A stretch of DNA of 57,569 nucleotides, filler included, from Sphacelaria rigidula (Eukaryota): the NCBI GenBank assembly GCA_964200075.2. It is 8 parts of 8 records of this genome, joined end to end, with 100 filler letters (N's around TTAATTAATTAA, not from the genome) between each part and the next. Parts side by side here need not be neighbours in the genome. Positions count along the whole stretch, not along the records: positions 1 to 7,109 come from CAXNAA020016439.1; 7 more parts are not named here. One strand, 5' to 3'. The translations under genes were made by a program, and so were the position numbers. Positions 237 to 44,215 of this stretch are shown piece by piece; position 1 is the stretch's first letter, and each line of letters starts with the position of its first letter. Under the pieces are notes generated by a model. That model saw only the letters and a program-made list of their open reading frames with translations. It was not told the origin of the DNA and made no database searches.

Positions 237-440
237 ATTGATTGATTGATTGATTATCTTACATTGGCTGACTGCAACAATCCAGCCCGTGGTCAGGAGC
301 AGCGAAACAAACAGAATAATAGAAGAAAAAAGAAAGAAAGAGACAGAAAAAGACAGAAGCAACAGCCTCAGAAAGGGAAGCAGAAAGCCTCTGTGATGCA
401 CATTGTTTACAAATTACCTCAACGAACGATAGCGTAGCAA
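237..440 (-). mobile_element. 3' end of a retroposon-like repeat with an (AATC)n tail (copy 1)
   Basis: (ATTG)n at 237-254 is followed by ctgac...atccagcccgtggt and a long A/G-rich tract. The same arrangement recurs at 3343-3650. Confidence 0.45.
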
Positions 441-454
441 ATGGAATAGCGAAT

Positions 455-656
455 TTAAGACGTAGCCCTTGGGTAAACGGAGATAAGGAGAATCAGGAAG
501 AGCATTATATCTTTTTGTGTGAAGAACGGACAAACCATGATGAGTGGCCTTATATTGGAGGTGTTTCCATTAGGAGTAGGAAAAGTGCTCCGTCTCGAAA
601 GGGAAACGTGGTTAATGGTCAAATGACAGCAACAAATGAGTAACCCCCCCCCCCCC
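455..656 (+). mobile_element. 5'-truncated 3' fragment of the C-tailed LINE family
   Basis: Aligns by eye with 6830-7037 (ggaggtgtttccattaggagtagg...gtgctccgtctcgaaaggg...aacaaatgagta) and ends in a 13-C run. Confidence 0.85.
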
Positions 657-726
657 TCTCGTCTCGAAAGGGATGCGTGGTCAATGGTCAAACAACTAAC
701 TCGCAGATGAGTACGCCCCCCCCCCC
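657..726 (+). mobile_element. Mini-copy of the C-tailed LINE 3' end, head-to-tail on the previous copy's C-run
   Basis: ctcgtctcgaaagggatgcgtggtcaatggtcaaac...atgagtacg followed by C11. Confidence 0.85.
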
Positions 727-1804
727 TGCATCTTTCAACTGTACACACCGTCACTTTCTGTTTCGAGGCGAAGCTCCGCAGACTGGTGTTTGACCGTAAT
801 AGATCGATTCTTCCCGAGGAGAGGACACTGACACTACCTTCTTCCTGATTTTGCGCATTTGCTTGGTTCCCCTCCTATGTTATTCTGCGCCATCCTTCCG
901 TTGGAGTCTTTCCCAATTCTTACCGATTTCCCCTTTTTCAAGTCTTACGTTCTCTTCCGTTATTGTTCCCTTCATTTGCGTTCATCTTCATTTCTGACAT
1001 TTAGCTCAGACCACTCCTTGTCAGTGCATTCGCTGTGTCGGCTCTCGTTGTTTGCCTTCCCCCTCATCTTGTGACCTGCATTTTCTTCCGCGCATCCCCG
1101 AAAGCCTTCGACATCCTACACTCCGGAGGTAAATAACTCGTTTTCTATATACTTTACCCTTCTTCGTCTTTTTTTCGTCCCTTCGTTTCTTCGTGCCGCT
1201 CTGAAGTTTCGCCATGCGTGGTTTTGAGCAGTATACCGCACGTTCTCCTTAGGCTTCCATCCATTGTTTTTCAACCAACCCCTGTTACGTTCCTTTTGTT
1301 TTTGCCAACTGTGCCACCTATACAATCTTGACCTCATCTTGTGTCAGCTATTTTGTCGGACGCAACTTCTCTGCCTTCCATTTCCTCGTCTGCCCCTTCT
1401 TCTGCGTGCGCCGGAGCCTTGGAAGTAAGCGATGCCTTATTTCTTCGCTATAAGCATATCTTCCGCGACACCGCCCGTGGGTACACTCTTCCAGCCAACA
1501 TCCTAGGCCACAACAGCCCCATTTTCAGGAATTCTTGTGATCTTTCCCAAGGACAGTGCGGCTTGAGGTCATTGACTCAGTTTGATGACGTCCGCGGAAC
1601 ACGTACGTGTGACATCAGCCGCACTTTGAAAGTGCACGCCAGAAGCCGTCTTCTGGACGTGCGTCAAGAAGGGGAACTTTCTGGACGTCATAAGCCCTCA
1701 CAAGGTCATTTCTTGTTCTTTTTTTCTTTCACTTCTGACTCTTCCCCCTCCCCAGGACGAGTCCGTGGTCTCAAGGGATCAACCCATCTCCCCCCCGGTA
1801 CATG

Positions 1805-1875
1805 TGCTCCGTCTCGAAAGGGATGCGCGGTCAATGATCAAACGACTAAGGCGAGCAGCAAATGAGTACGCCCCC
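1805..1875 (+). mobile_element. Mini-copy of the C-tailed LINE 3' end
   Basis: tgctccgtctcgaaagggatgcg...aatgagtacgccccc, with a degenerate TSD cccccccggtacatg (1790-1804) / ccccctcgggacacg (1871-1885). Confidence 0.9.
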
Positions 1876-2060: not shown

Positions 2061-2131
2061 GGGGGGCGTACTCATTTGTTGCTTGCCTTAGTCATTTGAC
2101 CATTGACCACGCATCCCTTTCGAGACGGAGC
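2061..2131 (-). mobile_element. Mini-copy of the C-tailed LINE 3' end with a perfect 15-bp TSD
   Basis: Reverse-complement copy flanked by aacacctatgggggg at 2052-2066 and 2132-2146. Confidence 0.95.
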
Positions 2132-2239
2132 AACACCTATGGGGGGTAGGTAATACATATTTTGGTGGTACTAAGGGTCCCGAATTTCGGCCGCATCCAC
2201 GGGCCCCCCTTTTGCTTTCCGCGTAGCCTCTACTTGTAG

Positions 2240-2290: not shown

Positions 2291-3342
2291 CAAACAGCAG
2301 CAAATCTACACCCCTACAGCTTTACACGAACAGCGGACCGGCATGAGCACAAACAGCGTCAGGGATTCTTCTTCCCGGAGGAGTCTGGGGTCTCTGTTTT
2401 GCCCAATTAGTCTTGAGCCCGAAGGTGTCGAGGTGCGTGCAGCGCTACTTCGCTTTGTGAAAGTGACGAAAACGTCTGTGCAACACTTCACGATGGTACG
2501 GAAGCGTGGTACTACAAAAAAGATAATTGGTACGACGAAGAGACGTGGTAAAATGTACTCGAAGTACTTGTACTTCGTACCTTGCGTACAAGTACATACG
2601 CAATGTATGCGAAACAAGTGATGCGAAATAGTCTACAATGAACATATAAACATACAACAGACGTAATACAAGCATCAACACATGCATCCATACATGTAGA
2701 TATACACAATGCATACTGAGCACCACACCGAAGTACATGTGTACTGCTATAAACATGAGAAGTGCATTACACACGCGCAGAGTGCGTTCGAACCTCATCT
2801 CTGGCGTCAATGTACTGATGTTAGTGTTCTCTTGACGTTATTATACTGATTTTAGTGTAAAAATGTGGAAACCCAGGGATACACCACGAATCATCCCCGT
2901 CTTTGCGGTAATTTGAGGGTAAGTTATTGAAATTGCTGATTTCAGGAAATTACGGTAAGTTATTTGTTTAATCTGGGGTAATCGACATCCTTGATTATCA
3001 GCGGGGGGACGAAACGCGGGTTCCATTCACGCCGGATGCGTCTAGTTTGCCTTTTTTTTCTTTCAATATCTGATTTCCACCATCGACCGCGTGAAAAGTA
3101 GTTGACTGGGTTTGGATGCCGAGAGTTGACGCGGTGCGGGAGTGCTGATAGTCATAACCCAACCCGCGAGACCAAAATGCAAGGCGTGTACTGGGGGAGA
3201 GATGGATTGGTCTCTTCAGACCACGGACTCGTCCCGAGAAAGGGGAGGGGTTAAAAGTGTGGCAGAAAAAATACTGCTGCTGGCCGTACCTGTGTAGCAG
3301 TGGAATAGAGCATTATGTTTCTCGCTATGCTCCATACTTATG

Positions 3343-3650
3343 GTTGATTGATTGATTGTCGCACTTTAACTGACCCCCTAGGGATCCAGCCGTGGTGTCA
3401 TGATAGACGTACCCAAGACAACGAAACTGAAACACGCTCTGAAGAAAAGAAGGAACAGAAGAAAAAAAAAAGTAATGAAAAAAAGTCAACACAAGCAGAG
3501 CACAGAAAGAAATGGCCCACCGAAAACAAAACAAAAAAGAAGGAAAAGAAGAAAAAAAAATACAGAGCAAATAAAAAGAAATACAACAAGACAAAAAAAA
3601 AAGGGAAAAAAAGGAAAATGCCCACGGGATTCAGGGCAGCAGAGTAGATA
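3343..3650 (-). mobile_element. 3' end of a retroposon-like repeat with an (AATC)n tail (copy 2)
   Basis: (TTGA)n plus aactgac...gatccagccgtggt plus an A-rich tract, similar to 237-440. Confidence 0.45.
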
Positions 3651-4661
3651 TTAATTGAATATTGACTACGGCTCATTTCGGTAACGCACGTCTGTCTGCC
3701 CCTTCGTCTACTGCTTGCCGTCAATGGCGCCCCTGTTCTACTTATTTGGTTTTCGCAGTCAGATATCCGCAGCACCAATATACGCCGTGAGAGACGTATA
3801 CATTGACGAAGTGCTGCACACGTGTCCTTACGTACAGTCCTAAATTCGCAACCACCCATCATGCAGTGCTATCGGCATTATCGGCGCGTGTGCAACTTTA
3901 ACAGCACGATCAAACGACTCTGTACATTGAATTATGAAGAAGGTCAGTTGGATCGCCCGACGAGGACGGTACGTCGATTACATCATCACGCAGCGCTTGA
4001 GCTGGAACCTATCTTGCCCTGGCAGTCAGCACCCAATAATGCGCTGGTATCTAGTTTTTGTTCGGTTGTTCCTATACTTTGAATAATAATGAATATGTAT
4101 AGCATATTAGCACTGGCACAATAGCGTTCGAATTTCGGAAATAACACAACCACAGCGTGACGATAACGGCTCATGGCTTTGGACCCCGGAAATACATTTT
4201 GGGTCATACCTGAACGACAATTTCTTATCCATACGATATCAGGAATACGAATAAAAGGGTGCGGACGCGAATGCAAAGACATTGTAGAGTTCTCCACATT
4301 CCCCTCTCCTATACTACGCGGAGTACCGAGGACAACTACTGATTCTTCTTATTACCCAATGTACCGATTTGCCAAAATACCATGCCATCCCCACATGACC
4401 CGATCTGTCGGACTTTCACATCATGTACAACACGGAGATGTCCGAGTGTACACGTTTATCCTGGCACCGAGTATTTCTTAAACCTCTAAACTCCGTCAAG
4501 GGTTGGAGTCAACACTTTTGATCTCCTGGTATGACCCGAAATCCAAGAAGAACTGGAGGAAATCAAATGTTACGGTAACCACGCACACCTCATTTCGCCG
4601 GTTCATGGGGAATATTTTGCGTAGAGAGTATACCTCCGGCATGCACCCATTCCCCCCCCCC

Positions 4662-7037
4662 TGAAACAAATGTGGGCAGGGATGAAAGGCATTAGGGGAA
4701 ATCAGGCAGGAAAGATGGACAAGGGGATATCTACACTCCGGGCAAAGAACGGGAAAATGGTCCGCAGTTCGGAGGAGAAGAGAGAAGTGCTAGTCGAGCA
4801 TTACCGTAAAGTGGGAACACCAAAAACAACCACGGAGTTCCACAAAAAAATCGAAAAAGGAAACCAATGCCCGGGCAGAGGCGAATGTAGAGACGTCAAA
4901 ACGGAAGGATAGAGGCTCGACCGAATTGCAAAGAAATTTTCCCAGAGATGAAGTGAAGGAGTGCGTAGCTAAACTCAAGACAGAAAGGCACAGGGGCAGA
5001 CGGAATAGTGAATGACTTTCTAAAGTACGGGGGGGGGCGTTCTCATTTGTTGCTTGCCTTAGTCGTTTGACCATTGACCACGCATCCCTCTCGAGACGGA
5101 GCATTCTAAAGTACGGGGGGGAGAGAATGATTACCATGATGGTTATGCTGTATAACTGGATATGGGAGAACGAGTACACATAAAAGAGGTGGAGAGGAGT
5201 AGAAAACCTTTTCCAAAAAGGAGACAAGACTGACCCAGGAAACTATAGAGGGATGACGCTACTGAGTACGGTAGGAAAAACATCCTGTAAGATTCTGAAC
5301 GATAGAGTAGGAGCAATGCTAGAAAAAAAAAGACAAAGTCAACGAAGCACAAGCAGGATTTAGACCAAACCATAGTTGCGGAGACCATGTGTACTGTTTC
5401 TTTCTGGACGTGCAAAAGGATTATGACACAGTATGGAGGAATGGGTTGTGAAAGAATTTGTAGGAAACTGGGATCAGAGGAAAGATGTGGAGAATTGTAA
5501 AGATGACAAAATGTGCCAAAAGTTCTATGATGCCAGACGGGGAAATATTGAATTATTTCGATATCTTACAAGGAGTTGCACAAGGATGTACGTTATCACC
5601 TAGTTTGTTCAAGGTATCCATTAATGACCTGATGATAGCAATAGAAGCAGCAAAGGAAGGGGTCAGGGGCGGTGAAGATACGGTATCAGGATTGATATTC
5701 GCAGATGATTTTGTGTGGATTTCAGAAACAGTAGAAGGACTACAGACACAGATAAACAAGGCGCTAGAATATACTAGGAAATGGAGAGTGACAGCGAACG
5801 TAAACAAATGCGTGGTACTCGTCTGTAGTAAAGAAAAAACGGTCGAGTTCAAATGGAAGTGGGGAGAAACGGAACTGCCGATCGTAGACCAGTATACATA
5901 CCTTGGCGTGAAGATCTCAGGAAACTGCTCTTGGGATGCACACATAAACAAAGTAATAGAAAACGGTAAGGCACAGATATGAAGGATGGATGTGATTCTC
6001 AGAGACCCGCACCTAGACACTAGGACTAAGAGATGTGTCCTGATGAACGTGATCGTACCAAAGCTGGAATATGCGGGAGAAGTATGGGAGGGGAACATGA
6101 AGTTGGAGGAAAGGTTGGAAACAGTACAGATGGCAGCAGCTAAGAAGATAGTTGGATTCTCGAATGTACGAGTAATACAGTTTTGAGAGCAGAGTTAGGA
6201 ATGTACTCACTTGAACAAACAGAGACATGAGGAAATTGCGATGGCAATATAGCATAAAGAACATGCAGAGAAAGACATTGTCAGCCTTAGCTGATAGGGC
6301 TGTATGGAAGAAAGTGACGAAAGGGCAGGCTGGAATAGAGGTGGGATAAAGAAGTCGAGAAAGTATGGAAGGAGATAAGAGGAAACCAAGACGAAATACT
6401 GTCCATAGATGAGGATGCGGGGTACAAGACAAGAGTAAGAGATATGATAGCAATGAGGGGAAAAGGAGCGCTCAGACGCGAAGTAGACGAAGAACACCTG
6501 GAGATATACGGAGGGTTGAGGGAGGGGATCGGAATGAAAACATATTTGCATGGTCCAATGGACGCTGCGAAAAATATGAAACTACGATTTCGGGTAGGGG
6601 AGCTGGACCTGCCAGAAAGAAAAAAGAGGTTTACCAGTCGTCGCGAGGACGAGGAAGTAAATGCCTAGAATTGCCCCTGTGGTAAAAGAATAGAGAGCAG
6701 AAGTCACATAGTGGCAGAATATGAACTATACAAGGAAGAACGGATTGTGCTAGAGGGGGAAATGCGGGACGTGAATGAAGCTAGCATGAAATCGTTAGAT
6801 GAATTAGACAGTAGCGAAAAAACGAAGTATACTAGGAGATAGATGGTGGCCACAGACGGCGAAACAGGACGGGGATAAAATATGTGAAAGGTTTTTGTGT
6901 CATGTCTGGAATAGACATAATGAGCGCCGGGATGTTGGGGGTGTCTCTATTAGGAGTAGGGACTGTGCTCCATCTCGAACGGGATGCGTGGTCAATGTTC
7001 ACACGACTAAGGCAAGCAACAAATGAGTACGCCCCCC
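4662..7037 (+). mobile_element. 5'-truncated, decayed non-LTR retrotransposon (LINE) ORF2: reverse transcriptase, C-terminal CCHC-like region, poly(C) 3' end
   Basis: Frameshifted RT motifs: LFQKGDKTDPGNYRGMTLLSTVGK, QAGFRPN, FLDVQKDYDTVWRNGL, GVAQGCTLSPSLF, FADD, YTYLGV, then CPCGKRIESRSH. The terminal frame reads ...FLCHVWNRH...APSRTGCVVNVHTTKASNK* (TGA 7024-7026), then GTACG and a C-rich tail. Many stops and frameshifts. Confidence 0.95.
5029..5103 (-). mobile_element. Mini-copy of the LINE 3' end inserted antisense inside the LINE itself
   Basis: Flanked by an 18-bp direct repeat ttctaaagtacggggggg (5018-5035 and 5104-5121). It interrupts the codons for ...DFLKYGG... Confidence 0.95.
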
Positions 7038-7109
7038 GCCCCCACCCCCCCCCCCCCAACCCCACCCCCCCCCCCCCCCCACCCCGCCCCCGCCCACCAC
7101 TCTGACTCG

Positions 7110-7209: not shown

Positions 7210-7285
7210 TACGTTTCTTCCATACATTACACAAAAACCTTTCACATATCCCATCCCCGTCCTGTTTCGCCGTCTCTGGCCACTT
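7210..7285 (-). mobile_element. Fragment of the same LINE family (near its 3' end)
   Basis: Reverse complement matches 6845-6915 (gtggccagagacggcgaaacaggacggggat...atatgtgaaaggtttttgtgt). Confidence 0.85.
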
Positions 7286-8199
7286 TTTTAGGGGGGGGGG
7301 GTGATATCAGGGGGAACCACGGTTTCGGTCAGCGTTGTAAGCTCACAGAGTCGGTGAAATGCGGTCAAGAAGTATCAACGCGATCAAGGGGCATTAGGTC
7401 GACAAAAAAGTCATGGGGCACCATCGCTGAAAGTGTGGGGAAAACGTTGTTTTGGGCTTGAACCTCATTTCATCGTACAGCCTCATTTTATATATTTGCC
7501 TGTTTCAAAGAAAACACTATATATAGTACAAGTGTGAATTATTGCAATATGATTAAGACGTTTCTACATCACTCCCTGCACTGATCCTCCACAGCTGACC
7601 AACAGTGAGGACGTTCGCTCATGTGTGTGCCGTGTTCAACTCGCCAAGGGCTCATTGCACGGTCATGTTTTTGCTGGTGACTAAGGCCAAGGCAATGTTC
7701 AATTGTTTCCAAGTGCTTTGCTCCCATGTTCTCGTGACATTCGCTGCATAACCGCTGTCTTCGTGCTCCTGAATCAACGAGAACGCAAAAAAATACCCCG
7801 CCATGAACAGGGTTTTGTTGTTTTGGTTCCTGTTTGAAGTTTTCCATCATCTTGAAGAGGCTTTTGTGGTTCGGGATCGACATCCCGCGAAAAAGAGCCA
7901 GAGTGGGCGACTTTTGATGGCCAGAGCACGCGCCACAGGTATCATATGACACCCAAACCTGAAGAGTAATGCACCGCTGCGCCTTCTTCATGCACTGCAA
8001 AAGAAAGCGCGCGATAAGATGCCTTCCCGCCAGAGGAAAGTCGGCAAAAGTGGTGAAAAATGCGAAATGATACATTTACATATGTATGTGCACAAGAACC
8101 CCCTACTATGACTCTTGAAACGTTAAATACTCCGGAGTATAGCACAAAACTAAATTCTTGCCACATACGCGTTGTTTCATGTCATGCGAGCAGGTAGTG

Positions 8200-14318: not shown

Positions 14319-14462
14319 NNNNNNNNNNNNNNNNNNNNNNNNNNNNNNNNNNNNNNNNNNNNTTAATTAATTAANNNNNNNNNNNNNNNNNNNNNNNNNN
14401 NNNNNNNNNNNNNNNNNNTTTTCGTGCAACCAAATACCCCCCCCCCCTTTCGTAGGATGGCT

Positions 14463-21104: not shown

Positions 21105-21659
21105 TCACTCTTCCCCGCACCCTGGTACCTCCCTTCCTTGAGCGATAGGATGGTGGGCGGGAAAAATCGATCAAGTGCCAGGGACTACTGTGATACTGAG
21201 GCTGTTGGCGTGTCGCTGTCTGGTCGACTGGTCTCGAGTGATACTGTCCGCTTCTTTGGTGGTCTTGCACCACACCAGTCTCGCGTGCTTGAACACTACT
21301 CGGCGACAGTGGCAGCTTGGCTACACGAACCCTTATATTTCATTTCAAGTTCGGCATACGCCAGAGTACCTCCCTTATAATTCGTCATCCGCCAACACAA
21401 ACCTCGTACTCTTGCAAGATACACCCAGTCATCCAAAGCCGCAAGTGGCGGGCGGCCCGCCGGTCGCCACATCCTGTTGAAAGCTCTCTACGGCGACCCA
21501 TGCTGGTTGGTACATCAGATGTACATTNNNNNNNNNNNNNNNNNNNNNNNNNNNNNNNNNNNNNNNNNNNNTTAATTAATTAANNNNNNNNNNNNNNNNN
21601 NNNNNNNNNNNNNNNNNNNNNNNNNNNAGAATAGCAAAAAACAAGAGAGGAACAACCCC

Positions 21660-21795
21660 CCCCCCCCCCCCAATGATGTGTGTGAAAAATCCGGAGCGAA
21701 AACGGTCAAAATGGTGTGTTTGGCTGTTTTCGCGTTTCTGCCCATTTTTTCGTACCTTTCGTAGCAAAAAACAGAAGGTATACATTTTCCTAGGC
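21660..21795 (+). repeat. Dispersed repeat
   Basis: Closely similar to 43734-43865 (aatgatgtg.gtgaaaaa...gcgaaaacggtcaaaat..tgtgtttggctgttttcgcgtttctg). Confidence 0.85.
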
Positions 21796-24468: not shown

Positions 24469-24520
24469 GGGGGGGGCGTACTCATTTGTTGCTTGCCTTA
24501 GTCATTTGACCATTGACCAC
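24469..24520 (-). mobile_element. Ultra-short (~45 nt plus tail) copy of the C-tailed LINE 3' end
   Basis: Flanked by taccatggggggg (24463-24475) and taccatgggaggg (24521-24533). Confidence 0.9.
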
Positions 24521-26332: not shown

Positions 26333-29300
26333 TACGTACGTACCTCTCAACTACATACCCACGTACCCGCGTACTCACGTACCCGCGTACCCACGTACCC
26401 AAGACAGCCGGGTACTGACGGTCAGGTACGGTGGTGCTACAGTCAAGCGGCCCAGCCCCGCAGACTAGCACTTGTTATCCAGACAGTAGTAACACTTCTG
26501 CCCTTTCCGTTTCCCGTCACAAAGAACATCATTAAGGGTACTGTGTGAATCCAAGCAGGGAAATATATCATCAGCACCCCCGAGGCAGGATGCTACTGAA
26601 GTCTTCGCGCACAAAATGGGTCACTGGGTGAATCAGGCAAACGAGAGGATAACACCCCTCGACACCGGAATGCCACGTAGGGCGGGCAACCAACACAAAT
26701 GAACACACGAACGCAAGTTAACAATATAGCCACTCGACCACGTAACACACATACACACGGGACAAAAAAGCGGTCACGAAGAATCCTTCGACGGCAAAAC
26801 TCCGCCTGCGCTTAATCTCTCTACACGAGCCTCGGGAAATACCGCAGCTAGACCGGAGCCTAGCAGCACCGACGCCAGATCGGAGGGTGGGGACGTCGGG
26901 TCTGCGTCCCCTGAGTCTGTACGCCTCCGAAGGAATACCTCCAGGGAGCACAGCAGCAACCGGGACACCTGGGATAAGAAAAGGATGAGACGCACAGAAA
27001 ACGAGCATGATTAATGGTGCACTCGATCACACATTTTTCGCAGCAGTGTTTTTTTAGTTGTATAAATCTTCGACCATGACAGGGGCTCCGATAGCCTTTT
27101 TTTTCCCATGATTTTTTATTGCTACGAAGCCTGGGGAGCACAATTCGTGTCGCGAAGCACGCACGCTTATGTGCATGACAGGCGGGTACCGAAAAGTCTG
27201 CATAGTGGGTTTGGTGAACAAGAATTCCCAGCACATTTTCTAGTAGAGTGAAGTGCACTGTGCTAAAGATTTCACACTTTCAATTCCATTGCCATAGCAG
27301 TGGCAACACACACATATTTTCACATTATATATATATATGTATGTGTGTGATTTCCGGGCACTCCACAAAACCACCCACCACGACACGAGAAATTTATTTC
27401 TGTCTCCGAGTCTTCCGAAGTAATTTATTCGGAACTCCTGGAGAGCTGCAACGTCCTGGCGGCCTACCTGATCGTTGAAGGTCATGCTGTCCATTTTGCC
27501 GGCACCCCCTGTCTGCCTTACTCTGTCGGGAGCGAACAGCGCCATGTCGGAGAAGTTCATGTGTGCTGGATTCAGGCAACGAAAGGGGCGCCGGGGGGAA
27601 AGAAGCATACACAAAGAAGGAGGGTGACTTCGTCCATGAGTCGTGGTAAAGAGGGTAGTTGAATATTCGATTCATGTGCTTGGTCATGACGTCGTTAAAT
27701 ATGAATCGACGTGCTGTCGGTATATTTCAGGAATGTAAGAGTATCGTCGTTGGAAGATGTGGAGATGATTAGGACTTGCTGGTAAATTAAGCAATGAAAG
27801 CAACTTGTTTTCTACACAGGGTTGATGGAAGCACAGCGATTGGGAAGAATAATGCGTTGAATGAGCCCAAAATGCACCGCTTGCGAAACAAAATGCGTTT
27901 GAACGAGGAGTTTTGGTCAACACCAAGTCATATCGTGAGAACCACGCAGAACAAACTACAGATCACCATCCACACATCAGATCGAATGCGCTGATTCAAA
28001 AAGTGTACTCGGATATGATGATTTTTCTTACACCGCACAGATCAACGTTCAACGATGATGTCATGCTTGTACGTGGCTATCTTGCAATGATGACGATATC
28101 CACTCTGTGATGTGCTCACACCGTGATGCGCATGAAAAAGGAGTGTTGACAAGCTTGCCCTAGAAGGGAAAAGTCGTTGAAATAAAGAAAGGGCGTCCGA
28201 CGCAAAGGGCGCAGTAACGTGTGTGTGTGTGTGTACCCGGCGGTTTTGTAACTTCTGTAGGGCTTTCAAACCGCTACCTGATAGTTAAGTGAGTTCTGCA
28301 ATCTTCCCATACCCTTACCGGGGTCATGGCTATATCCTTACAAAAATATCCGGTTGCGAGTACGGTTTTTCTGCGCAGTCTCCATACCCTGCCCGACAAG
28401 TTCTGTTAATTCTGGAAGACTCTCATACTGGTACCCGACAATTCTTTAACTTATGTAAGGCTTTCATACCGGTACCTGATAGTTATGTGAGTCCTGGAAG
28501 CCTCCCATACCTCTACCCTGGGTTAGGGCATACCCTTGCAGATATATACCCGACGCAGACACGAGGACAGGTATGTACCCTGGGGACGTATGGATGTAGC
28601 TTGAATCCCGGCACAATCTGATAACCTGAACTTGTGCTCCAAATCCCCATCAATCAACCCCCCCCTCATTCACTAAAGCTCCCCCCACACCTCTAGACTC
28701 TTGGGTTGGCGTCGAGTGGCAACGGCGCTGTAAAACNNNNNNNNNNNNNNNNNNNNNNNNNNNNNNNNNNNNNNNNNNNNTTAATTAATTAANNNNNNNN
28801 NNNNNNNNNNNNNNNNNNNNNNNNNNNNNNNNNNNNGGGGCGGGCGGGGGGGCCCGGGGGGCGCATCTACGAGAGCAACTACGGGGGGGTATTTGTTATC
28901 TCCCCAAGAACTTTCTAAGATTTCCGGCTCACCGGTGTTTTTCGAAAAATTCCCGGCGCACAGGATTTACTATCCCAACTACACCGCCCGCCCGTTCCTG
29001 ACCCTCCACCCCGCCGCGCCGCTTCGACGGTGGTGCTGGAGGCTTTCTGGCCGCCTCAAGGCAAGCACCTCCGCGACGAGACGGCTCGACGGTTGCTTCG
29101 CAAACGCCATATACGACACCTGAGCGGGTGGCAAGCGGGGCAGGCGCATAACAGTAAAAAAGTGAAGTTTTCATAAATGAGAGTGCATTGCAACCCCTTG
29201 CGCATCCTACTATTATGGGAGAGTTTACGGGGTTACCGGCGACCCATAGCCTGCAACCCGTTGACAATGTCGAACGGTCACATATGTATACAAATATGCG

Positions 29301-32075: not shown

Positions 32076-32400
32076 GGGGGTGTATTAATGGTCATGCATG
32101 CCACGGTCATCAGACCATTGACCTCGCATCCCTACAAACCCAGGATGGAGTGCGCCGGGTATTCGCCGGACCAGGCTCGCACACTCAATCGCCAAGCGCG
32201 AAGCGCCGTGCTGTGTTCGGCGAGTCGCATGAAGGGTGAGCTGCATCCTGCTAAGATTGTTCGGCCTGAAGCCTACTGATTATCTTGCATTTGGATGACA
32301 GCCTCCAATGACTTGCTTTATTCTCTAGTATCGCCAGTTCCAGAGACAGCCACGGCTTATGTACTGCCTCATGGGTGTCTTGCCATATAAACAGTAGGTA
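32076..32400 (-). mobile_element. 3' fragment of a second C-tailed LINE-like lineage
   Basis: Minus strand ...gggatgcgaggtcaatggtctgatgaccgtggcatgcatgaccattaatacaccccc. The body is homologous to 35270-35580. Confidence 0.7.
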
Positions 32401-35273: not shown

Positions 35274-35580
35274 GGGGGGGGGTACTCATGATCTTGCGTG
35301 TCGTAGTCGAAAGACCGTTGACCTCGCATTCCTGCAAAGTCGGGACAGGCCACGCCGAGTTTTCGCCGGCCCAGGCGCAATCACCAATCGCGAAGCACCG
35401 TGAGGTACCCGGCGAGTCGCATTAGGGATGACCGGTATCCTGCCACCATTGTTCAGCCCGGAGCATACTACCCATCTTGCACATAGGTGGAAGCCTGGGA
35501 TGAGTTGCTCTATTTCCTGCTAACGCCACTTCCAGGAAACAGCCACAATGGGTCACACTGCCTCATGGGTGTCTGTCTCA
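35274..35580 (-). mobile_element. 3' fragment of a related C-tailed LINE-like lineage
   Basis: Minus strand ...ggaatgcgaggtcaacggtctttcgactacgacacgcaagatcatgagtaccccccccc, homologous to 32076-32400. Confidence 0.7.
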
Positions 35581-35645: not shown

Positions 35646-35724
35646 TGCTCCCGTCTCAAAAGGGATGCGTGGTCAATGGTCAAACGACTAAGGCAAGCAA
35701 CGAATGAGTACGTCTCCCCCCCCC
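35646..35724 (+). mobile_element. Mini-copy of the C-tailed LINE 3' end
   Basis: tgctcccgtctcaaaagggatgcgtggtcaatggtcaaacgactaaggcaagcaacgaatgagtacgtct followed by C9. Confidence 0.9.
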
Positions 35725-35870: not shown

Positions 35871-35945
35871 GGGGGGGGCGGGGGAGGGGCATTCATGATC
35901 ATGCATGCCATATTCATATGACCATTGACCTCGCATCCCTACAAA
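35871..35945 (-). mobile_element. 3' end of the second C-tailed lineage, cut by the contig end
   Basis: G-run followed by ...catgcatgcc...gaccattgacctcgcatccctacaaa, the same core as 32113-32139. Confidence 0.75.
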
Positions 35946-44137: not shown

Positions 44138-44215
44138 GGGGCGTGCTCATTCGTTGCTTGCTTTAGTCATCTGACCATTGATCACGCATCCCTTTTGAGA
44201 TGGAGTACCGTTCCG
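44138..44215 (-). mobile_element. Diverged copy of the C-tailed LINE 3' end (intronic)
   Basis: ggggcgtgctcattcgttgcttgctttagtcatctgaccattgatcacgcatcccttttgagatggagtaccgttcc. Confidence 0.85.

Follow-up and report, generated by a model that had tools for sequence, protein, structure and literature searches.

The C-runs that accompany the 3′ ends of LINE copies in the DNA analyzed here probably serve one and the same family both as tail and as landing site. In our view they are best explained by a high-copy, APE-type LINE family of a brown alga or a close relative, the counterpart of RTEX-1 and RTEX-2 of Ectocarpus, which occurs together with tail-only copies and a partner family and integrates by target-primed reverse transcription (TPRT) at the 5′ edge of C-runs, where the target would pair with C's of the template RNA. 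The evidence base consists of a 57-kb window, that is, the whole stretch of DNA analyzed (eight slices of 7108–7109 nt, joined via N/TTAATTAATTAA spacers), two outside loci, protein relatives, the contigs of four public runs drawn from two studies (X1, X3, X4, and X5), and the literature; it covers about 12 insertions. The use of C-runs as tail and target by brown-algal RTE-X LINEs had hitherto been recorded only in a curator's note, for which the window family provides an independent confirmation from a second host. Newly added are anatomical details, namely a pre-existing target run, a target-site duplication (TSD) that opens with this run, a mostly target-derived tail, a coding 3′ recognition module, and the dominance of copies of ~66 nt.

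The LINE family and its relatives

The longest copy, located at 4662–7031 on the plus strand, is degraded and 5′-truncated. Pfam RVT_1 was detected at 5464–5979 (E = 2e-12), and tblastn aligned the copy to residues 578–1360 of the related protein P0004 (1360 aa). Because this alignment begins only at residue 578, the copy must be regarded as 5′-truncated and devoid of the endonuclease. According to a three-frame translation, its RT-like pieces are interrupted by several stops and frameshifts. The terminal frame (6808–7026) is open and ends with ..TTKASNK and a TGA at 7024–7026, and merely 5 nt (GTACG, 7027–7031) lie between the stop codon and the element end. A C-rich tract (C6 G C5 A C13 AA C4 A C16 ...) follows on the same strand at 7032 to ~7100, and may be either tail or pre-existing target tract, the two being indistinguishable here. 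AATAAA and ATTAAA are absent from the last 130 nt of the copy, as is an A-tail. At its other end the copy abuts a C10 (4652–4661, plus strand), which may be the 5′ copy of a TSD composed of C only (10 nt with one mismatch, a match that was reached by 4 of 2000 random 30-mers). An earlier note on this DNA had described the reading frame up to the TGA, the GTACG and C-run without poly(A) signal or A-tail, and the C-run at the 5′ junction, all of which were confirmed by reading the sequence.

The 26-nt core of this 3′ end has eight matches with up to three mismatches in the window, as opposed to none in 100 shuffles. Searches with blastn and an nhmmer profile detected nine copies of the family (E ≤ 3.4e-14) within four of the eight slices, and a fifth slice holds a fragment of the LINE body only (7210–7283, minus strand), which is cut at the piece boundary and has C11 + TAAAAAA on its element-sense 5′ side (G11 at 7291–7301). 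The copies span 44–2370 nt, with variable 5′ truncation and neither LTR nor TIR. Besides the long LINE and the copies with clear mixed-sequence TSDs described below, they comprise a longer and older 3′ fragment at 371–643 (plus strand; also given as starting at 512), which corresponds to P0004 residues 1272–1355 and ends in ..AATGAGTAA followed by C13; a short copy placed head-to-tail behind it (657–715, plus strand), which is flanked by this C13 (644–656) and by a C11 (716–726); a 67-nt copy at 35646–35712 (plus strand), followed by TCT and a C9 (35716–35724); and an older 73-nt copy of ~84% identity at 44142–44214 (minus strand). A C-run succeeds the 3′ end in all nine copies. It follows immediately, with 5–13 C, in seven of them, stands as C9 behind the TCT in one, and is an interrupted C-rich stretch in the 73-nt copy. 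Neither a poly(A) signal (AATAAA/ATTAAA) nor an A-run was present at any of the nine ends. Thus, the nine 3′ ends that had been counted in four of the eight contigs, each with its C-run, were all recovered, and their coordinates proved correct to 1–2 nt.

Outside the window, a 23-nt pattern retrieved only two loci from a metagenome collection. Both belong to other assemblies and are longer copies that end in ..AATGAGTACG (..GAGTACG), followed by C8 in one case and C10 in the other. Viral contigs contained no locus matching the DNA pattern and no relative of P0004 at the protein level, and Rfam gave no matches at gathering thresholds for the whole window.

The proteins most closely related to the RT piece share 73–75% identity with it, and Ectocarpus gene models share 59%. 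When P0004 residues 700–1360 were used as query, the Ectocarpus models P0009 and P0034 showed identities of 57 and 71%, respectively, and Ectocarpus proteins (57–71%) are the closest named relatives. P0004 and P0005 (1360 and 1328 aa) encode Exo_endo_phos or Exo_endo_phos_2 together with RVT_1 in one ORF, the endonuclease being N-terminal to the RT (RVT_1 in the relatives: E = 1e-30 to 1e-34), and both end in ..GCVVNGQMTKASNK like the window copy. Classification as an APE-type non-LTR retrotransposon family is supported by the RT domain in the window and by APE plus RT in these full-length relatives, which upholds the earlier assignment to the non-LTR elements.

RTEX is a clade name of Repbase (PMC5753468). 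In Ectocarpus, the RTE-X LINE RTEX-1_Ec32 is annotated as "single EN-RT ORF; (C)n 3′" with a "C-rich" TSD, and RTEX-2_Ec32 as "(C)n termini/TSD," likewise with a "C-rich" TSD (PMC12477816, supplementary file 1). The same file lists the non-autonomous RTEX-N1/N2_Ec32, which have the 3′ 60–100 bp in common and possess C-rich TSDs, and of which RTEX-N1_Ec32 "can be present in tandem"; the partners in this table are sized 188 and about 600 bp (PMC12477816). Therefore, the claim that the trait had not been described before fails, as it was already recorded for Ectocarpus RTE-X elements. In the available portion of the main text of that paper the term "C-rich" does not occur, and trait and mechanism are not discussed there; the accessible part of PMC4421812 merely names RTEX-1 in Saccharina and does not cover tails. 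A poly-C reported in PMC9942856 was considered as a parallel and rejected, since in the excerpt available it belongs to the TIR of a DNA transposon. Our literature search retrieved neither the mechanism nor a description of the trait beyond the Ectocarpus table.

The window family agrees point for point with the Ectocarpus elements. Like RTEX-1/2 and RTEX-N1/N2_Ec32, as far as these are characterized in the table, it has EN and RT in a single ORF and combines a (C)n 3′ end and C-rich TSDs with partners that have only the last 60–100 bp in common, with tandems, and with a very high copy number, and it also has the C-terminal peptide ..G(R/C)V(V/A)NG..K of the Ectocarpus proteins. We therefore file it as the RTEX-1/2 counterpart of another host. 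It differs from the tabulated elements in its host and in that its commonest copies are just 44–78 nt long and start preferentially near −66. Membership in RTE-X is suggested by the protein similarity to Ectocarpus gene models and by these shared features, the RTEX consensus having been compared by description only.

Target sites and the origin of the C-run

TSDs were scored with anchors at both element ends, which was possible for the eight copies that have both ends inside the window. Six of them are flanked by a TSD of 10–20 nt that was matched as well by no more than 4 of 2000 random 30-mers, whereas the TSD is not clear for the remaining two (35646 and 44214). All six TSDs open with the C-run, as the earlier note had stated for the duplicated target. 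The 66-nt copy at 2067–2132 (minus strand) has an exact 14-nt TSD, which reads CCCCCCATAGGTGT in element sense (2053–2066/2133–2146). For the 44-nt copy at 24477–24520 (minus strand), which adjoins a G8 (24469–24476), the TSD comprises 13 nt with one mismatch (CCCTCCCATGGTA vs. CCCCCCCATGGTA; 24463–24476/24521–24533). The 68-nt copy at 1803–1870 (plus strand) resides within another repeat and possesses a TSD of 13 nt with two mismatches (CCCCCCCGGTACA vs. CCCCCTCGGGACA; 1790–1802/1871–1883). A tail-only copy of 66 nt (5038–5103, minus strand) is nested in the LINE's own G-run; its TSD of 18 nt, or 20 nt with one mismatch, consists of C7/C9 + GTACTTTAGAA, the G9 side (5018–5037) adjoining the 3′ end of the element and the G7 side lying at 5104–5121. 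Finally, C-only TSDs were assigned to the long LINE (4652–4661/7032..) and to the copy at 657–715 (644–656/716–726). A preference for T or A directly in front of the C-run (6 of 6 sites) was considered but rejected, because the chance expectation is ~0.1.

Two sites inside the window are preserved in their unfilled state, and they show that the C-run predates the insertion and that the element enters at the 5′ edge of the run. The repeat that hosts copy 1803–1870 has an inverted paralogue at 3091–3290, which is continuous through ..CTCTCCCCCAGTACACGCC.., and the two flanks of the copy overlap on this paralogue by the length of the TSD. The second site is that of the nested copy, which was formerly a coding G7 of the LINE (codons K-Y-G-G-E); P0004 shows KYGGEG in the corresponding position. 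The family's insertion at C-runs, another claim of the earlier note, is thus seen both in the position of the sites at the 5′ edge and in the TSDs that open with the run. In run X1 we observed a joint that leads from position 1799 to 1882 with a single G in between, which may represent the unfilled or a paralogous site of copy 1803. A repeat common to 1–500 and 3290–3700 was looked for and not found.

Where the TSD is clear, the numbers of C's in its 5′ and 3′ copies are 6/6 (copy 2132), 7/7 counting one T in the 3′ copy (copy 1803), 7/9 (nested copy), and 7 (CCCTCCC)/8 (copy 24520), and in two cases a T of the 5′ TSD copy corresponds to a C in the 3′ copy. As the 3′ run equals the run of the target or is longer by only 1–2 C, the apparent tail of these copies is mostly the target's own C-run. 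The 0–2 additional C's fit a primer that pairs with a few C's of the template and now and then slips or is trimmed, and they are also within the range of homopolymer length error, later slippage, or mutation. Longer runs are present as the C11 and C13 of the tandem pair and as the ~70 nt of C-rich sequence behind the LINE, and in run X5 the loose-end consensus that adjoins the 3′ end of the unit comprises at least 16 G; each of these (C11/C13, the ~70-nt tract, and the ≥16 G) could be a long pre-existing tract. The family also targets itself, as it has inserted into its own tails (tandem pair 371–726) and into its own coding G-run. Since long C/G runs adjoin several piece ends of the window, the assembly is indeed troubled by such runs, and their lengths must be taken as uncertain. 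The family is thus a practical nuisance as well, because its long C/G runs and its multitude of short copies coincide with the ends of assembly pieces.

The coding 3′ module, short copies, and a partner family

The ~60-nt 3′ module carried by every copy is coding, because the ORF extends to within 5 nt of the element end. In its 66-nt form the module includes GGATGCGTGGTCAATGG and encodes ..APSRKGCVVNGQ(M/T)TKASNK followed by the stop codon. In 26 of the 136 relatives compared, a motif of the form [G..][C/R][V/E]V[N/Y/D]G (GC(V/E)VNG) lies close to the C-terminus, from which it is separated by 4–10 residues and in one case by 23; elsewhere in these proteins it was not encountered among the 131,174 residues scanned. 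The nucleotides of the module (GGGATGCGAGGTCAATGGTC) recur in a second family that is non-coding, which suggests a constraint on the nucleic acid. A conserved RNA fold is unsupported: single-sequence folds of the module were not better than those of shuffles (z = −0.33 to +0.39), and RNAalifold with 12 sequences revealed a compensatory change in none of 11 pairs. The GAAA/ATGAG of the unit was also considered as hammerhead-like, but this interpretation was dropped, because the core did not fit when inspected by eye.

The second family is about 300 bp long and is represented at 35274–35573 (minus strand), where profile and sequence comparison identified a related 3′ module, AGGAATGCGAGGTCAACGGTC, and an end that reads ..ATGAGTAC + C8–9. 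Another copy (32076–32380, minus strand) is 71% identical to it over 309 nt and has a weaker C5 end. A third 3′ end of this family was recognized by sequence comparison at 35881–35945 (minus strand); it is cut at a piece boundary and is followed by C4 T C5 G C8. This non-autonomous family has the module and the C tail in common with the LINE family, whose partner it probably is.

Five of the eight truncated copies start within five alignment columns of TGCTCC, which lies ~66 nt before the end, and this start of the short copies at about −66 is independent of the TSD sequence. In the public runs, head-to-tail joints of the type unit-Cn-unit were found in at least 51, 43, 15, and 4 contigs of X1, X3, X4, and X5, respectively. 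A second class of joints extends ~11 nt farther upstream, where it is preceded by a C-run. The runs that contain the slice used for this comparison are labelled as one coded organism and an algae metagenome; no RNA run is listed among them, and four runs guessed to be RNA contained 0.05–0.07 of the sequence words. Between 21,743 and 131,341 contigs per run align to this one slice, and its unique flanks are covered by one contig each. As such depths must not be equated with copy numbers, we conclude only that each of the four runs contains the family in great abundance.

Proposed integration mechanism and alternative explanations

In the mechanism that we favor, TPRT would take place at the 5′ edge of a C-run, i.e., at W|C(5–13) on the top strand, which is equivalent to a nick of the bottom strand just 3′ of the G-run. 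A second nick 10–20 nt downstream would then give rise to a TSD beginning with the C-run. The 3′-OH of the G-run might pair with a few C's behind the ..GUACG of the template RNA, and it could be the (C)n of the source copy that supplies these C's to the transcript, in the manner of other stringent LINEs with their microsatellite tails. Such pairing would set the start of the cDNA and would be the C/G counterpart of the T primer and A-tail of L1, and occasional slippage or partial pairing might add C's, leading to longer tails and hence to new targets. Priming from the G-run on an oligo-C RNA end, as the earlier note had proposed, is plausible as a hypothesis. If the pairing is true, the family would offer a natural test of the extent to which the target choice of LINEs depends on primer–template microhomology and not on poly(A) itself. 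A more far-reaching version of this mechanism can be put forward only tentatively. Here, the terminal ~60 nt of the ORF would have a second function as an RNA element bound by the RT, the 66-nt pieces would constitute the minimal TPRT template, the few template C's would pair with the G-run in what would be a genuine C/G mirror image of L1 priming, and lengthening tails would become targets. A dual role of the ORF end would explain why distant relatives have GC(V/E)VNG at a fixed distance of 4–10 residues to the stop, why the non-coding partners retain the same nucleotides, and why 66-nt pieces are mobilized in huge numbers.

Alternatively, the specificity of the endonuclease might suffice. 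The APE would nick the boundary between G-run and W, the RT would start at ..GUACG without any template C's, and the tail would be wholly target-derived, a scenario with which the equal C counts in the TSDs of copies 2132 (6/6) and 1803 (7/7 counting one T) and the C-run already present in the unfilled paralogue are in good agreement. We consider it unlikely nonetheless. Against it stand the extra C's at two junctions (7 to 9; CCCTCCC to C8), the C11–C13 tails and the ~70-nt C-rich tract in the window, and the ≥16 G adjoining unit ends in the runs; moreover, the source copies carry (C)n, and read-through templates would contain C's anyway. It is far less probable that the C-run is nothing but an element-borne (C)n tail, with most landings in older tails, arrays formed by unequal recombination, and no preference for ordinary C-runs. 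Three insertions in C-runs that are not tails argue against this explanation: one in a repeat whose paralogue has the run, one in the coding G7 of the LINE, and one in sequence that looks unique, where the 14-nt TSD is of mixed composition. The tandem pair 371–643/657–715, the head-to-tail joints (≥51, ≥43, ≥15, and ≥4 contigs), and the entry for RTEX-N1_Ec32 quoted above (PMC12477816) would be compatible with it. An artefact, be it homopolymers introduced by sequencing or assembly or a coincidental association, is hardly credible. Several piece ends do lie beside long C/G runs of uncertain length, but the runs are duplicated along with mixed-sequence TSDs, the same end plus C-run recurs in two other assemblies and among the contigs of the four runs, which stem from two studies, and 100 shuffles yielded no match to the pattern.

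The integration proposed here, with TPRT at the edge of a C-run, invites comparison with human and mammalian L1. This APE-type LINE performs TPRT at a homopolymer-rich nick site with a T-rich primer, which can pair with the 3′ homopolymer of the template. L1 has a 3′ UTR with a poly(A) signal and a poly(A) tail that is added post-transcriptionally, and its TSD opens with the base of which the tail consists. The window family resembles L1 in the APE type, in the homopolymer-rich target, in the TSD that starts with the tail base, and, if the pairing holds, in a primer able to pair with the 3′ homopolymer of its template. Unlike L1, it has no T-rich primer, poly(A) tail, 3′ UTR, or poly(A) signal; its 3′ module is coding, and a specific 3′ sequence is needed, which is characteristic of the stringent type. 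Other LINEs without an A-tail are found in the Ectocarpus table, where RTE-1/2_Ec32 and CRE-1_Ec32 are listed with (CAA)n and (CA)n tails, respectively (PMC12477816). With these elements, as described in the table, the window family has in common a short 3′ repeat that is passed on from copy to copy, probably for register with the target. The window family differs from them in that its tail repeats just one nucleotide, C, and in that its TSD visibly includes the run of the target.

Terminal peptide and non-coding family

The peptide GC(V/E)VNG, encoded at 6990-7007 by the degraded LINE, lies at a fixed position 4-10 residues before the stop in 26 of the 136 relatives fetched (C-termini of P0002-P0053, protein relatives of the LINE), and reaches down to approximately 38% identity. 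It is confined to this C-terminal position, being absent elsewhere in the sequences of the 136 relatives. The nucleotides behind it are also retained in a second, non-coding repeat family of approximately 300 bp, copies of which lie on the minus strand at 32076-32380, 35274-35573, and 35881-35945. Two copies of this family share 71% likeness over 309 nt, and its last ~60 nt resemble the LINE 3' module, with the terminus reading ..ATGAGTAC followed by a C-run, as in the LINE. This family probably represents a non-autonomous partner, comparable to RTEX-N1/N2, the partners of the Ectocarpus LINEs RTEX-1 and RTEX-2.

Start points of truncated copies

The 5' ends of five of the eight truncated copies fall to within a few nt at TGCTCC, which lies ~66 nt before the 3' terminus (element 5' ends at or near 2132, 5103, 1803, 35646, and 657). 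In the centroid of the predicted fold of 6940-7036, GGAGUA is paired with the UGCUCC of this copy start.

Slice ends and other repeats

Of the 16 slice ends, 7 have a family copy or long C/G run no more than approximately 100 nt away (7032-7100, 7291-7301, 14437-14447, 21656-21671, 28846-28889, 35871-35945, and 50503-50519), which suggests that contigs break at such repeats or homopolymers.

Another repeat is present as two diverged, inverted copies (1700-1990 and 3091-3290), one of them broken by the 68-nt LINE-tail copy; contigs of the public sequencing runs aligned to this slice show 'opposite strands' joints from ~1786-1790 to ~3190-3196. A (CAG)n microsatellite of ~16 units occupies 2241-2289. 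Summed contig depth is very high at 1-474 and 3082-3555 in all four runs, and other repeat families are therefore placed there. Despite the GATTGATTGATT motif common to both segments, blastn found no mutual similarity between them.
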